NCBI GenBank assembly: GCA_045862955.1
Contig: BTVI01000051.1
Coordinates: forward strand, 1-19,583
Source: Fimbriimonadales bacterium
Lineage (GTDB): Bacteria > Armatimonadota > Fimbriimonadia > Fimbriimonadales > JABRVX01
DNA length: 19,583 bases
Direction of reading: 5' to 3'
The notes beneath the pieces were generated by a model, which was given only the letters and a program-made list of their open reading frames with translations, was not told where the DNA came from and did no database searches. Shown here one piece after another: positions 3,062 through 18,058 of this stretch (position 1 is its first letter; each line of letters begins with the position of its first letter). Made by a program: the position numbers and the translations under genes.

Positions 3062-3673
3062 ATGAAAGTCCGGCTGCTCCTTGCGAGCTTATTCGTAGCC
3101 ATGGTCGCGTTGGCGCTCGGGCAAGACGCGAGCGATCCGCACGGCATCGCGCCGATCATGCGCGCCAACGACGAAGTGAACCTGCTCACCGACCTCACGC
3201 CCCTGAAGCTGACGAAGGAACAGTATCCGAAGGTAATCGCCCTGCTGAAAGCTTCGCGCGAGAAGTTCGACAAGGAGTTGAAGGCGCTGGAGGCCAAGGA
3301 GGCGGCTTCCGTGAAGCAGCTGAAGCCGAAGGTGGACGAGGCGCACGCGAAGGCCCTGAAGGGTGAGGTGCCACCCGACTCCTACTTCGAAGAGTGGCAG
3401 AAGATGCTCATGAGTCACGCGGTGGACCGGGCGAACCTGAGGATCAGTACCGTGCGCTCTCTGGGCGACGAGTTGAAGAAGGTGTTGACCGAGGAGCAGG
3501 TCAAGTCTGCCATCGCATCGGCGAAGAAGGTGATCACCAAGGCACAGGGTGGCAAGGAGCCTGATCCCACCAAGTACGGGGACAACTCGTTGTTCTGGTA
3601 TTACGTGGAGAACGTGCTGATGAACGATCTGGTGCCGGCGCTATTGGAGAAGCTATCGAAGCCCTCGGAGTGA
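3062..3673 (+). CDS. Hypothetical secreted helical protein, 203 aa
   Basis: ATG at 3062 follows a GGAGG RBS. Signal-peptide-like N-terminus [22 protein letters not shown]-rich helical body and strongly coding-like codon usage. The upstream part of the 2090-3673 ORF is only antisense to ahcY. Confidence 0.85.
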
Positions 3674-5914
3674 GGTGAGCCGGGCAGCGTTCAGAGTGAC
3701 CAGCAGCGACACTCCGACGTCGCCGATAGCCGCCAACCACAACGGCAACACGAAGGGCACGCTGAGCACCACCAAGCCGATCTTCGTTAGAATGGCGAAG
3801 GCGATGTTTTGACGCATAACCGAAGCGGTGCGGCGTGCAAGCCGAATGAGCGTAGGCAGCACCTCGATTCGGTCATCTTTCAGCACTACGTCACCGTGTT
3901 CGATCGCTGCCTCTGCGCCGGTACGCCCCATGGTGACGGAGACCGTAGCTGCCTCCAAGGCGGGCAGGTCGTTGATGCCGTCCCCAACCATGATGACCGT
4001 CTCGGTCTGCGCCAACTGCCGGACGCGCGAGGCTTTGTCTTCGGGCATCAGACCGCCTTCGAACTCTGCGATCTCCACCGCTTTTGCGGCTTCGGCGGTC
4101 GCGCCCTTCTTGTCGCCGCTTAGCAGAAGCACGCGATGGATGCCGAGAGAGCGGAGTTGCGCGATGGACTCCGCCGCCTCGAAGCGGAGGGTGTCGCGAA
4201 GGAGGATACTGCCTACGACCTCGTCGTCTCGAGCGACGTAGACAGCTATCTGGCCGGCCTCGAGTGTGTCTTCCAGCCCGAGCCATGAGCCGCGCCCAAC
4301 CCGCACACGGGCACCATCCACTCGGCCCTCCATGCCGGCGCCCGGTACCACCTTCACGTCGGCTGGGCGGTGAGAGGCCAGACCACGAGACTCGGCTTCT
4401 CGGACGATGGCGGTAGCGGCGGGGTGGCGCGAGTGGGATTCGATGGCAGCTGCTAGGCCTAGCACTTCGTCTTCGGTGTGCGATCCGAGCGGGCGGACTT
4501 CGACCACTTCGAGGGCTGCATACGTGAGAGTCCCTGTCTTGTCGAAGACGGCGGTTCGGGCGCGGGCGAGCGCATCCAATACGGCACCGCCTTTGACGAG
4601 GGCACCGAGGCGTGACGCCGCACCCACCGCTGCTACGACTGCCACCGGAGTGGAGATGACGAGCGCGCATGGACAGGACACGATGAGGAGCCACAGGCTG
4701 CGGCTAATCCACAGGCTCCAGCCCCCGCCACCGACGAGCGGTGGAACGGTGGCAAGCAGCGCGGCAAGCAGGACGACGAGCGGCGTGTACACCGCAGCGA
4801 AGCGATCCACCGTGCTCTGCAAGGGCGCCCTGCGCTCTTCCGATTCCTCGATGCTGCGGATCATCCGAGCCAGCGCGGTGTCTGTCACGCCTCCCGTGAC
4901 GCGGACCTGCACGCTGCCCGACCCGTTCACCGTGCCTGCGAAGACGCGGTCCGAAGGTCCCTTGGATACCGGGATGCTTTCGCCGGTGAGAGCGGATTCG
5001 ACGGCTTCCGTAACGCCCTGAAGGATGACGCCGTCTAACGGGAACAGCTCACCGGGATGAACTTCGATGAGGTCTCCAGGTTGGACCGTTGCTGGGTCCA
5101 CTACCTGCGGGCCCTCGCCGGTGCACAGCCTGGCGCGGTTGGGTGTGAGCGACAGAAGCGCGTCAACTGCCGAACGGGTGCGACGTACCGCCCAGTCCTG
5201 CACCAATCCGCCTAAGGCGGCCAACCAGACCACCGCCGCTGCTTCACTCCAGTGCCCGAGGCCGATTGCACCGGTCACAGCCACCGCCATCAGGACGTTC
5301 GTGTTCGCGGTGCGTCGCTTCAGCGAGGCAAGCGCGCCCTGGAAGATGGACAGGCCCTCGACTGCGACGACCGGCAGCAGGAGTAGCCATGCCAGCGGCC
5401 ACTGCACGTACTCGGCGATGCTACCGGCTGCCAGCAGCGCGCCGGTTAATGCAAGTCGAAATGCAGGGGAGAACGTGGGTGTGATGCCCGCGCCGACCGG
5501 CGCGAAACCGGCACGCCGGACAGCCTCGGCAATTCCGCCCGCCCCGATGCGGGCGCTGTCGTACTCGACGAAGAGCTTCTTGGATGTGTAGCTTACGGAA
5601 GCGTGGTTGACCCCCGGCAGGTCGGCTACCGCCTTCTCCACCTTCTCGGCGCAGGAAGGACAGTCGAGGCCCGTCAGGCGCAGCGTCTCGTGCACGACGC
5701 CGTCGGACACCCCGGCGCCGACGCGACCGAGTTGCTCCCGCCAGGTCTCGTTGCTACCGTCGGTATCCACGTCAGCGGAGCGACGGTCCAACGCGGGGCG
5801 AATCGATTGTACGCCTCGAACGCGCTGGGCGCGCTCTAGGAAACGGTCGAGGCAAGCGTCACACTGGGCCGCGGTCGGGACCGACTGGGAGAGATCGAAT
5901 TGCTCGGTTGCCAA
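3653..5914 (-). CDS. Heavy-metal-translocating P1B-type ATPase (ZntA/CadA-like, Zn/Cd/Pb)
   Basis: HMA motif GLDCPSC plus an extra N-terminal CDAC, LTGES, transmembrane SCPCAL, DKTGT, SRHP and GDGIND. The Lys in TM7 and Asp in TM8 (GDVG) fit subclass P1B-2. The TTG start directly abuts the regulator's TAA. Confidence 0.95.
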   Translation of the reverse strand: MATEQFDLSQSVPTAAQCDACLDRFLERAQRVRGVQSIRPALDRRSADVDTDGSNETWREQLGRVGAGVSDGVVHETLRLTGLDCPSCAEKVEKAVADLPGVNHASVSYTSKKLFVEYDSARIGAGGIAEAVRRAGFAPVGAGITPTFSPAFRLALTGALLAAGSIAEYVQWPLAWLLLLPVVAVEGLSIFQGALASLKRRTANTNVLMAVAVTGAIGLGHWSEAAAVVWLAALGGLVQDWAVRRTRSAVDALLSLTPNRARLCTGEGPQVVDPATVQPGDLIEVHPGELFPLDGVILQGVTEAVESALTGESIPVSKGPSDRVFAGTVNGSGSVQVRVTGGVTDTALARMIRSIEESEERRAPLQSTVDRFAAVYTPLVVLLAALLATVPPLVGGGGWSLWISRSLWLLIVSCPCALVISTPVAVVAAVGAASRLGALVKGGAVLDALARARTAVFDKTGTLTYAALEVVEVRPLGSHTEDEVLGLAAAIESHSRHPAATAIVREAESRGLASHRPADVKVVPGAGMEGRVDGARVRVGRGSWLGLEDTLEAGQIAVYVARDDEVVGSILLRDTLRFEAAESIAQLRSLGIHRVLLLSGDKKGATAEAAKAVEIAEFEGGLMPEDKASRVRQLAQTETVIMVGDGINDLPALEAATVSVTMGRTGAEAAIEHGDVVLKDDRIEVLPTLIRLARRTASVMRQNIAFAILTKIGLVVLSVPFVLPLWLAAIGDVGVSLLVTLNAARLTSLRGLR

Positions 5915-6244
5915 TTAGTGCGCCTCCGCCACGTGGTCCAAGCCTTGCTGCACCAGTCGCCGGACGTGCTCGTCGTCCGCAGTGTAGTACACGTGCTTCC
6001 CTTCCCTGCGAGAGCGGACAAGGCGCAGTGCCCGAAGGAGCCTAAGTTGGTGGGAGCAGTTAGAAGGGGTGATGCCAAGTGCTTCGGACAGCTCGCAGAC
6101 GCACAACACGTCGTTGGCCAAAGCGGAGACGATGCGCAGCCGGGTTGGGTCACCCAGTGCAGCGAAAATGTCTGCCAGCTGGGAGATTTGGGCCTCGGTG
6201 GGCGGTGAGCCGGTTTTCTCGCGTGGTCGAGTCAAGCTGGACAT
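5915..6244 (-). CDS. ArsR/SmtB-family metalloregulatory repressor
   Basis: FAALGDPTRLRIV, LCVCEL, SHQLRLLR and REGKHVYY motifs. An alpha5 site D-x-H-x10-H-x2-E is present (DEHVRRLVQQGLDHVAE). Confidence 0.95.
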   Translation of the reverse strand: MSSLTRPREKTGSPPTEAQISQLADIFAALGDPTRLRIVSALANDVLCVCELSEALGITPSNCSHQLRLLRALRLVRSRREGKHVYYTADDEHVRRLVQQGLDHVAEAH

Positions 6245-6874: not shown

Positions 6875-7276
6875 CAGAGAACGCAGAGAGCACGCGAAGA
6901 GCGCAGATAAGGGGCGAAGCTCACTGGCGAGGCGATCCGAGTCCCGCCGCTCGCGGCAGCAGGGGCGAGCAGCCGTGGGCATGGGTCTACCCCTCTCAGC
7001 GCTCTCCGCGATCCGCTTCGCGTTCTTAGCGAGAAACTTCCGGACGGAATGGGCCGGGGAGGTCGCCCAGAGAACGCAGAGAACACGCGAAGAGCGCAGA
7101 TAAGGGGTGAAGCTCAGTGGCGAGGCGATCCGATTCCCACCGCTCGCGGCAGCAGGGGCGAGCCAGCCGTGGGCATGGGTCTACCCCTCTCAGCGCTCTC
7201 CGCGATCCGCTTCGCGTTCTTAGCGAGAATCTTTCGGACGGGATGGGCCGGGGGTGTCGCCCAGAGAACGCAGAGA
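6875..7276. repeat. Tandem duplication of a ~193-bp element with CAGAGAACGCAGAG ends
   Basis: Units start at 6875 and 7068, with a 15-bp stub at 7262, all beginning CAGAGAACGCAGAGA. The two full copies differ at only a few positions. Confidence 0.92.
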
Positions 7277-7518: not shown

Positions 7519-7596
7519 TGGTCGGGGCGACTGGACTCGAACCAGCGACCTCTTGCACCCCATGCAAGCGCGCTAGCCAAACTGCGCCACGCCCCG
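7519..7596 (-). tRNA. tRNA-Pro(GGG)
   Basis: Minus strand reads CGGGGCGTGGCGCAGTTTGGCTAGCGCGCTTGCATGGGGTGCAAGAGGTCGCTGGTTCGAGTCCAGTCGCCCCGACCA. It has the acceptor stem CGGGGCG/CGCCCCG, anticodon arm CTTGC-ATGGGGT-GCAAG, a GTTCGA T-loop and an encoded CCA. Confidence 0.97.
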
Positions 7597-7734: not shown

Positions 7735-7773
7735 TATAATCCGGTAGCGCGCACGAGCGCCCGGAGGGCAATC
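7735..7773 (+). promoter_or_regulatory. -10 box and Shine-Dalgarno of the small ORF
   Basis: Consensus TATAAT at 7735-7740 in GC-rich DNA. GGAGG at 7763-7767, 6 nt before ATG 7774. Confidence 0.65.
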
Positions 7774-7932
7774 ATGGCAGACATTCTCATCGTCTTCGTG
7801 GCGGCAGCGGCGGTGCTCTGGATCCTCAGTCGCGTCGGGACAGGCTTCTCCTGAGGGCTCGGCTCATGCGGGGGGTCACCCCGCGACGCCGAGAGCGACG
7901 AGGCAAGCGATGCGGATCGTCGAGCTTCCTAG
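7774..7932 (+). CDS. Candidate small membrane selenoprotein, 52 aa: MADILIVFVAAAAVLWILSRVGTGFS-U-GLGSCGGSPRDAESDEASDADRRAS
   Basis: Promoter and RBS are present, followed by a hydrophobic N-terminal helix. The in-frame TGA at 7852-7854 has a Cys five residues later, and the frame continues to TAG 7930-7932. A SECIS-like hairpin follows the TGA. Without readthrough the product is a 26-aa peptide. Confidence 0.68.
7858..7893 (+). promoter_or_regulatory. Putative bacterial SECIS element
   Basis: Upper stem GCGGGG (7868-7873)/CCCCGC (7879-7884) with apical loop GGUCA. Lower stem CUCGGC (7858-7863)/GCCGAG (7888-7893). The loop begins 20 nt after the UGA. Confidence 0.62.
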
Positions 7933-7952
7933 CGCGGGAGAATAACCACACG

Positions 7953-7990
7953 GCGGCGGTCGGAGGAGGTACGCCTCCTCCTGCCGCCGC
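7953..7990. terminator. GC-rich hairpin after the small ORF (terminator-like, no U-tract)
   Basis: GGAGGAGG-TACG-CCTCCTCC (7962-7981), extended by GCGGCGG/CCGCCGC. It lies about 20 nt after the TAG at 7932. Confidence 0.5.
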
Positions 7991-8314
7991 TCATCGAGTT
8001 CGGTGCGCCCAGGGATACGCTTGGTCAGAGTGAACCATGGGGCTCCGCTCTCTGCACCAGGTCGGTGGACGCTGCGGCCTTAGGACAACAAAGCACAGCA
8101 GAAAACGAGAGAAGGTCATACTCTATGAAATCGTGATTTCCGCTCGTGAGCCATTGATTGTGGTTGTCGCAACGGTACCCGATACATCTGGGACAAGCAT
8201 ACTGGGCGCGTTGTTCCCATCTGACCTGCCGAGCGGGTCCGCGTTTTGTGAAAACCTGTGCGATCCGCCTGCCACGCTCTGTGTCGTCGACCGCCCCGCG
8301 GTAGAATGCACGGC

Positions 8315-9238
8315 ATGCACGCCGTGAACTCGATCGCTCTTGGCAGTCTCGCTCCCGCCGCCACAGGCAAAGTTCGCGAGATGTTCGATTTGGGGAACGA
8401 CATCCTCATGGTCGCCACCGACCGCTTGTCGGCATTCGACGTGGTTCTGCCCACCGGCATTCCTTGCAAAGGGCACGTGCTCACCCAGCTGAGCGCGTTC
8501 TGGTTCGACCTACTGGACACGCCTCACCACATGCTGACTCTCGACTTCGAGGAGATCGCGTCGGCGGTTCGGGCAGCCGGAGGCGATCCCGTTCCAGAGC
8601 TTGCCGGTCGCTCGATGCTGGTTCGCAAGGCCAAGCCCGTGAAGTTAGAGTGCGTGGTGCGCGGATACATCTCGGGTTCGCTCTGGAAAGAATATCGTCA
8701 GGCGGGTGGGCCAGACTCCGACGTAGAGCTGCACGGCATGAAGCTTCCCGCCGGTCTGCAAGAATCGCAGCGGCTGGAGGAGCCGATCTTCACCCCTGCC
8801 ACCAAGGCGGACACCGGACACGACGAGAACATCGGGATGAGGGAAGCGGCGGAGATCGTGGGTACCGACCTGCTCGAGGAGCTTCGCAGGCGCTCGCTGT
8901 CTATCTACATGCAGGCCTCGGACCACGCAGCACGTGCCGGGCTGATTCTCGCGGACACCAAGTTCGAGTTCGGAACCTGTGACGGCCAGCTGATCTTGAT
9001 TGACGAAGTACTCACGCCCGACTCGTCCCGATACTGGGAGTCGAGCACCTACAAGCCGGGCAGCTCTCCCCCGAGCTTCGACAAGCAGTACGTGCGGGAT
9101 TACCTGGAGGGGCTGAACTGGGACAAGACGCCACCGGGGCCGGAGTTGCCCGACTACGTGGTGCAGGAGACGACGAAGAAGTACGTCGAGGCCTTTCGGC
9201 GGATTACGGGCCGCGAACTCCTCGGCGTCAGCAGCTAG
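8315..9238 (+). CDS. purC: Phosphoribosylaminoimidazole-succinocarboxamide (SAICAR) synthase
   Basis: GKVREMF, TDRLSAFDVV, ECVVRGYISGS, PIFTPATKA..GHDENI, ADTKFEFG, DEVLTPDSSRYW and FDKQYVRDYL motifs. Start placed at ATG 8315, 7 nt after TAGAAT. ATG 8306 is an alternative. Confidence 0.97.
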   Translation: MHAVNSIALGSLAPAATGKVREMFDLGNDILMVATDRLSAFDVVLPTGIPCKGHVLTQLSAFWFDLLDTPHHMLTLDFEEIASAVRAAGGDPVPELAGRSMLVRKAKPVKLECVVRGYISGSLWKEYRQAGGPDSDVELHGMKLPAGLQESQRLEEPIFTPATKADTGHDENIGMREAAEIVGTDLLEELRRRSLSIYMQASDHAARAGLILADTKFEFGTCDGQLILIDEVLTPDSSRYWESSTYKPGSSPPSFDKQYVRDYLEGLNWDKTPPGPELPDYVVQETTKKYVEAFRRITGRELLGVSS

Positions 9239-17621: not shown

Positions 17622-18058
17622 CGGTAATCGCGTCCTCACCACCCGCAGCGTCATGCTGAGCCACAGCGTCATGCTAAGCCTGTCGAAGCATGCACACGCA
17701 GGCAGCACGTCACCGTCTTCAGGTCACACGGTAATCGCGTCCTCACCACCCACAGCGTCATGCTGAGCCTGTCGAAGCATGCACACGCAAGCAGCACGCC
17801 ACCGTCTTTAGGTCACACGGTAATCGCGTCCTCACCACCCGCAGCGTCATGCTGAGCCACAGCGTCATGCTGAGCCTGTCGAAGCATGCGCACGCAGGCA
17901 GCAAGTCATCGCCTTCAGGTCACACGGTAATCGCGTCCTCACCACCCGCAGCGTCATGCTGAGCCTGTCGAAGCATGCACACGCAGGCAGCACGTCACGA
18001 TCTTCGCAGGTTGCGGATGCGGGAGCCGGCGTCATGCTTCGACAGGCTCAGCATGACG
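17622..18058. repeat. Cluster of four tandem units carrying the REP-type palindrome GTCATGCTGAGCCTGTCGAAGCATG, ending in a complete inverted pair
   Basis: Units start (CGGTAATCGCGTCCTCACCACCC) at 17622, 17729, 17818 and 17925. A perfect 26-bp inverted repeat spans 17952-17977 / 18033-18058. Confidence 0.93.

Follow-up and report, generated by a model that had tools for sequence, protein, structure and literature searches.

A probable 52-residue micro-selenoprotein with one predicted membrane helix in a Fimbriimonadales bacterium

Two described systems stand closest to the small gene analysed here: bacterial selenoprotein genes of the SelB type, with a SECIS hairpin inside the open reading frame (ORF), and the short Cys-rich membrane peptides of the FeoB-associated type. 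For the bacterial SECIS, the consensus given in the part of PMC13188914 that was covered is a 3–9 nt loop with G in the first two loop positions, 16–37 nt from the UGA, on a stem of 4–16 bp at −7.5 kcal/mol or below. Within the portion covered of Table 1 of the same paper (119 families) there is no UxxxxC family, the nearest spacing being the UxxxxU of the rhodanese/DsbD-like TsoB, and the main texts of BSepDB (PMC13326102) and deep-Sep (PMC12013277), as far as covered, contain 0 occurrences of ‘Armatimonad’ or ‘transmembrane’. The motif of FeoB-associated-type peptides is given as Cx3-5Cx2-3Cx6-8C in the part of PMC8749426 that was covered. Literature searches returned no paper describing a protein like the candidate, which catalogue supplements could hold, and a search that paired ‘selenoprotein’ with ‘FeoB-associated’ returned no Sec form in print.

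The candidate lies in a window, by which we mean the whole 19,583-nucleotide stretch of DNA analysed, between a divergent tRNA-Pro(GGG) gene (7519–7596, − strand) and the ORF of purC, encoding SAICAR synthetase (8258–9238, + strand; start at 8306 in the gene call of this analysis). The initial annotation of the window had described a hidden, self-contained unit, and its −10-like hexamer TATAAT (7735–7740), Shine-Dalgarno sequence GGAGG (7763–7767, 6 nt 5′ of the ATG), ATG (7774), TGA (7852–7854) and TAG (7930–7932) were all located on the + strand where claimed. GGAGG is unchanged in the orthologue described below, in which the −10-like hexamer reads TATATT and the pattern TAnnnT is maintained. 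The self-contained unit held as far as this −10 box is concerned; no −35 hexamer was matched and the promoter scan gave 0 promoter-like sites at its threshold.

The ORF (7774–7932, + strand) has 52 codons with the in-frame TGA, likely selenocysteine 27 as judged from frame, conservation and SECIS rules, as codon 27. Residues 1–19 (7774–7830) are hydrophobic, with a mean hydropathy of 2.4, and the single transmembrane helix that had been proposed is predicted there by both hydropathy and a structure model. In that model, built from a two-sequence alignment, residues 2–28 are helical, with pLDDT 84–87 over residues 1–20 and low confidence for the remainder (pTM 0.35); a Foldseek search with it returned 0 matches. 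The frame past the TGA was found open through GLGSCGG and an acidic tail to the TAG, as had been stated, and free of indels in the orthologue. If the TGA is read as Sec, the encoded motif is U-x4-C (U27 and C32), followed by the acidic tail.

Directly 3′ of the UGA, the two-tier stem-loop that had been described was recovered at the claimed positions (7858–7893, + strand) from folding, the orthologue alignment and the SECIS rules. Its lower stem pairs CTCGGC (7858–7863) with GCCGAG (7888–7893), its upper stem pairs GCGGGG (7868–7873) with CCCCGC (7879–7884), and its loop GGTCA (GGUCA in the RNA; 7874–7878) starts 19 nt after the UGA; the codon for Cys32 in U-G-L-G-S-C (7867–7869) overlaps the base of the upper stem. 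The folding energy of the hairpin is −25.5 kcal/mol (z = −3.1), a value reached by 2 of 200 shuffles. All six upper pairs are kept in the orthologue, the lower stem loses two of its six pairs and is thus partly broken, and the loop (GGUCG) differs only at its last base; with no change in the upper stem of the one orthologue, no covariation was seen.

The consensus was applied through our own implementation of the published rules, not through bSECISearch. The candidate passes them with a loop at 19 nt, a 5-nt loop starting GG, 6 Watson-Crick pairs and −13.4 kcal/mol, and the orthologue passes at −13.1 kcal/mol. Of the selD genes of the order, 24 of the 28 Sec-type pass and neither of the 2 Cys-type does (one of the 28 Sec-type rows, from the unpublished genome G036, fails). 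The same rules are also passed after 95 of 927 called ordinary TGA stops and after 7.0% of 76,237 TGA triplets. Common to the selD genes is a stem whose GGUYC-like loop lies at 32 nt, and the candidate resembles the selD of its own genome in carrying a GGUY loop (GGUCA at 19 nt in the candidate, GGUCC at 32 nt in selD). A strict motif (a GGUYN pentaloop with at least 5 Watson-Crick pairs), chosen with the candidate in view so that its rarity is overstated, follows 0 of the 927 called TGA stops and 23 of the 76,237 triplets, and among these 23 a positive coding score upstream is confined to the candidate ORF and selD. It fits only 8 of the 28 Sec-type selD genes.

The components of selenocysteine insertion whose presence the initial annotation had proposed to check were all found in the candidate's own genome (97.6% complete), which contains selA, selB, tRNA-Sec and selD, the last with a single TGA in frame; selA, selD and tRNA-Sec are present in the orthologue's genome. 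In a sample of the order, selA was found in 33 and selD in 32 of 61 genomes, including both same-family members, which also have tRNA-Sec; these tallies include G036, on which no conclusion rests. Three molybdopterin enzymes had no in-frame TGA in the stretch read and yielded no SECIS reference. The candidate thus shares with bacterial genes of the SelB type an in-frame UGA in a genome with selA, selB, selD and tRNA-Sec, and is unlike the listed selenoproteins in its 52 residues, its one membrane helix and its U-x4-C motif, and it has no significant Cys homologue, the usual proof for a selenoprotein. To judge from its sequence, the gene works like known bacterial selenoprotein genes, yet it fits no listed family.

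A separate TGA-containing family was observed in the same genome. Five paralogues of ~370 residues, apparently secreted and with a DUF4350-like domain (below the Pfam cut-off), carry a (D/E)-C-G-U motif (L112, G000:C28:39986; L113, G000:C44:543; L114, G000:C12:49525 and ~47700; L115, G000:C21 ~7660), with TGA in three of them and Cys at the aligned position in two. A search of 228 genomes (loci L116–L131) found TGA in 7 of 16 matches across 4 genomes (three in the candidate's own genome, three in G001 and one in G002), the weakest match lying in the unpublished G036. The family has no NCBIfam match, and none of the 6 TGA members that were parsed satisfies the SECIS rules, which may indicate a non-canonical SECIS; it shows the Sec/Cys pairing that is absent from the 52-residue candidate. 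A PEP-CTERM-type gene region (G000:C22:14057 and 14635, + strand), probably a decaying gene, is frameshifted and has in-frame TGA at two Trp-like positions.

One genome of the same genus (G001) holds an orthologue of the candidate at the same place (87% identity, E = 1.6e-25), which keeps the start, TGA27, Cys32, the upper stem and the TAG and has no indels. Before the TGA, 14 codons differ between the two genomes, 10 of them synonymously, and third positions account for 12 of the 16 substitutions (P = 0.0008); no alternative frame on either strand of the alignment accounts for this pattern. All 5 of the listed differences that variants among the read contigs show in the ORF are synonymous third-position changes (the variant contig has 8 differences in total, 3 of them listed). 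Because of the third-position bias, the identical ribosome-binding site, the synonymous variants and the lack of any other fitting frame, the first 26 codons are taken, on comparative grounds, to be a real gene. That the stretch is non-coding RNA or untranslated intergenic DNA with an ORF arising by chance would agree with the lack of any protein homologue or family match, and is extremely unlikely in view of these same observations, among them the conservation of both the ribosome-binding site and the ATG.

Whether the gene continues past the TGA was judged against a control set made from 700,224 nt of G001 (about one fifth of that genome), of which 620,640 nt aligned at 82.9% identity; our own gene calls gave 430 genes for which the stop and the next 78 nt are aligned, and in 139 of these the 3′ sequence is intergenic. 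Codon 27 of the orthologue is TGA, not the TAA or TAG that the initial annotation had named as counting against Sec; this retention says little at this distance because 130 of 151 ordinary TGA stops are kept as TGA in G001. After the TGA, 6 codons are changed, 4 synonymously, and 5 of 7 substitutions are at third positions (P = 0.045), or 6 of 8 (P = 0.02) when one extra synonymous change from an RNA-run variant contig is added; 23 of 25 residues are identical, the same TAG is used and there is no indel. Identity from TGA to TAG is 71 of 78 nt, as against 0.74 for 7951–7989, the drop coming directly after the TAG. Of the 139 controls, 20 keep an open frame of 25 codons with no indel in both genomes, 91% identity free of indels is attained in 9, and a single one matches the candidate's 23 of 25 identical residues downstream of its real stop. 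Of the downstream conservation that had been asked after, the frame, the TAG and the upper stem are thus kept, with 4 of 6 pairs remaining in the lower stem.

These figures bear on the main rival reading, in which a 26-residue single-helix peptide ends at the UGA and the conserved 3′ part is a structured region of a longer RNA, for example the long UTR of a type I toxin-like or regulatory small protein. A dicodon model gives it weight, with a strong coding signal before the TGA (+6.1) and none in the 25 codons after it (−1.7), as do the usual retention of TGA stops, the 9 intergenic controls with equal nucleotide identity, the RNA contigs that run on through the hairpin behind the TAG to ~8166–8168, and the conservation of the non-coding sequence that lies behind the ORF. 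We nonetheless consider it unlikely, given the third-position bias after the TGA, the fall in identity right behind the TAG, the single control that equals the amino-acid conservation, the SECIS spacing combined with the GGUY loop of the lineage (in its strict form absent after called TGA stops) and the Cys five codons downstream of the TGA. In type I toxin–antitoxin systems an antisense RNA overlaps the mRNA of the peptide; no antisense antitoxin was identified here among unstranded contigs, and there was no Rfam match.

The locus is covered by contigs from two metatranscriptome runs of one study (7784–8168 and 7796–8153), which span the ORF across the TGA with 0 differences, by a contig from another study (8012–8166) and by a variant RNA contig from a third (7807–7916); these contigs carry no strand and no level, and such libraries can contain DNA. 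Run X19 yielded only the tRNA from this locus, and no weight was given to the contig cover of the neighbouring genes, which is patchy or absent. Behind the TAG the first two contigs include a strong hairpin (7952–7991, + strand; −38.3 kcal/mol, z = −4.4, 0 of 200 shuffles as good), which is present with changed sequence in the orthologue. The strength that had been claimed for this hairpin was borne out; it has no U-tract and was not called by the terminator scan. A conserved non-coding element follows (7998–8060, no strand assigned; core 8022–8036) and gave no relevant Rfam match. A selenium-sensing leader, in which the UGA would be read through only with Sec-tRNA, altering the folding or fate of a downstream RNA element with the peptide secondary, would fit contigs that join the ORF, the hairpin and this element, and the position of the element within 70 nt of the TAG. 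It is very unlikely all the same: the element occurs without the ORF in a same-family genome, its core is found again at an unrelated locus, a conserved −10-like box of its own lies directly 5′ of purC, and the membrane helix is under protein-level selection. The reading that accounts best for the locus remains the selenoprotein gene, with UGA27 quite probably read as Sec.

The 15-nt core of the downstream element (8022–8036) is found in all three genomes of the family, both at the candidate locus and at a second locus (L237, G000:C13:19457-19471; L236, L238). The second copy is likely part of a lineage-specific small RNA: behind it come a hairpin and a U-tract, which close a conserved intergenic stretch of ~430 nt that has a −10-like box. 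6S RNA was rejected for 7998–8060, as the 6S RNA of this genome lies elsewhere, and what we took to be resemblances of the downstream element to ykkC- and c-di-GMP-type riboswitches were dropped for lack of Rfam support. Elsewhere in the window are a CRISPR-like array (1–1560; 61-nt period, at least 26 repeat copies), an intergenic tandem repeat of a 194-nt unit in 2.1 copies (6875–7276) and intergenic tandem repeats of nested 89–196-nt units (17622–17998).

Relatives of the candidate were sought widely. Neither 228 genomes of the order nor a sample of 401 genomes of the phylum yielded a second full orthologue, and scans of metagenome, genome and viral contigs gave no further one. Protein clusters of similar length gave 0 of 5 candidates and longer clusters 0 of 1114; a search of 1.84 billion protein representatives gave 4 matches, all long proteins with many matched stretches, of which the 2 examined are repeat proteins. 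A degenerate DNA pattern run against metagenomes hit 44 loci, none with a start, a membrane helix and a hairpin together. Pfam and NCBIfam scans at E ≤ 10 returned 0 families each, in agreement with the earlier remark that no named family could be assigned, and across the genome, metagenome and protein searches no Cys-containing homologue reached statistical significance. A same-family genome has the Sec genes and the tRNA-Pro…purC synteny and holds a different gene in the gap. The weak genome matches (18, 15 and 9 loci) look like chance, with the exception of one match at E = 0.012 in one of the 228 genomes, a real 51-residue gene (L072) that led to a family designated A6.

Members of A6 are ~50-residue peptides with a transmembrane helix followed by LRKLGVG-x5-PDCGCG. 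They were found at E ≤ 0.005 in 38 of 228 genomes of the order, the weakest few of these being near chance, and the family is put at more than 30 of 228. PF12669 was matched by 7 of 14 members, and no NCBIfam name was found for the family. Members lie in apparent metal-handling operons (YHS and YtkA domains were confirmed for one neighbour, the others being judged by eye); the family (L244–L273) is related to PF12669 and lies in YHS/YtkA-type operons, not behind feoB. Like A6, the candidate has the same length and layout, with W-I-L-S-R-V-G-T-G against the W-I-M-L-R-K-L-G-V-G of A6, and its U-G-L-G-S-C is spaced as the C-G-C-G-S-C of one A6 subgroup. With hhalign (probability 88%) the two are collinear with a five-residue gap, U27 falls on the first Cys of the invariant CGCG, and C32 aligns with the Cys that ends C-G-C-G-x-C in one subgroup (6 of 26 distinct members). 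Block-shuffled versions of the candidate reached its mean A6 score in 4 of 500 trials, and the family search returned the G001 orthologue at E = 0.0024. Because A6 was selected at the weak end of a search across 228 genomes, these pairwise statistics are optimistic. The A6 HMM scored the candidate at ~9 bits (E ~2 in a set of 38,065 small ORFs, at least 12 others of which score higher), and its per-genome E values of 0.096 and 0.025 are not significant genome-wide.

Differences from A6 are equally plain. The candidate lacks the five-residue spacer and the invariant Pro and has Leu at the second Cys, its tail is acidic where that of A6 is basic, and it stands alone between tRNA-Pro and purC and not in a YHS/YtkA-type metal operon, so that neither the invariant P-x-C-G-C-G nor the metal-operon context of A6 is found in it. 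No internal TGA was seen in A6 members among 22 matches in the 401-genome phylum sample. From the alignments, what links the candidate to A6 reads as resemblance, not membership. With FeoB-associated-type peptides at large the candidate shares a length of ~50 residues, an N-terminal membrane helix and a Gly/Cys-rich juxtamembrane segment; unlike them, it has no Cx3-5Cx2-3Cx6-8C motif, only Sec27 and Cys32, and it gave no match to the family HMM (E ≤ 10). Common descent with the FeoB-associated-type and A6 peptides is a serious possibility that falls a little short of being likely.

A link to the Feo system itself was rejected, as the candidate does not lie behind feoB and one feoB of its own genome has its own Cys-rich partner; on the orthologue's contig, feoB is ~12 kb away. 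In these genomes feoB takes the form of two separate genes, one for the GTPase and one for the membrane domain (G000:C53, L291; G001:C30, L294); behind them lie a small Cys-rich gene and, in G001, also a FeoA-like gene. The neighbouring heavy-metal ATPase (3653–5914) is on the other strand and 1.9 kb away, and the neighbourhood indicates no partner for the candidate. This P-type ATPase has an HMA domain and is preceded by a 109-residue ORF (together 3653–6244, − strand), which we presume to encode an ArsR-type regulator.

The mode of action that we propose follows established SelB/SECIS biology. SelB carrying Sec-tRNA would bind the GGUY loop 19 nt downstream and insert Sec at codon 27, and translation would end at the TAG at 7930 to give a 52-residue product; when selenium is short, a truncated 26-residue peptide would be made. 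By the positive-inside rule, the topology is predicted to be N-out/C-in because the N-terminus is acidic (M-A-D) and Arg20 follows the helix, which would place U-G-L-G-S-C close beneath the membrane, within a Gly-rich linker that faces the cytoplasm and is followed by the acidic tail. Lipoprotein signals have a positive n-region and a lipobox, and the lipoprotein reading was rejected for lack of a positive n-region and of a lipobox before U27. Sec27 and Cys32 would form a selenolate/thiolate pair that binds a soft metal ion, and the candidate may act as a membrane-tethered metal-binding accessory in which Sec replaces the first Cys, as its resemblance to A6 suggests. The initial annotation had left the choice between redox and metal binding; an accessory of this kind is favoured over a redox catalyst because a selenolate/thiolate pair suits a soft metal and because the look-alikes come from metal systems, so that the A6 resemblance may tilt the choice toward metal binding and away from redox catalysis. 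The assignment of a metal-binding role to the predicted Sec27/Cys32 pair is tentative.

The selenoprotein reading survived each of the refutation tests named in the initial annotation. It falls short of proof, given a single full orthologue, no significant Cys homologue and a two-tier hairpin of which only the upper tier is conserved; the candidate is in our judgement a probable new micro-selenoprotein. The explanation as a whole, in which a gene of two species has its UGA read as Sec and encodes a 52-residue, one-helix protein with a predicted metal-binding Sec27/Cys32 pair, is likely as well, if a shade less so. A bolder proposal is that it represents the first Sec-containing offshoot of the FeoB-associated-type peptides, a stand-alone gene in which the Cys cluster has shrunk to a Sec/Cys pair and whose product would serve as a selenium-based metal sensor or chaperone made at full length only with selenium; this is possible and rather doubtful.

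What limits the appeal of the finding is that it is so far confined to one genus and that its function is a predicted one. Selenoprotein catalogues are built for the most part on Sec/Cys pairs in larger proteins, and neither gene callers nor screens for such pairs pick up a 52-residue gene that its UGA shortens to 26 codons. If the reading is true, it would point to a whole layer of such lineage-specific micro-selenoproteins. Should the connection to the FeoB-associated type be true as well, Sec would mark the working residue of a widespread class of peptides, the translation and role of which are called open in the part of PMC8749426 that was covered, and a peptide this short would be directly testable.
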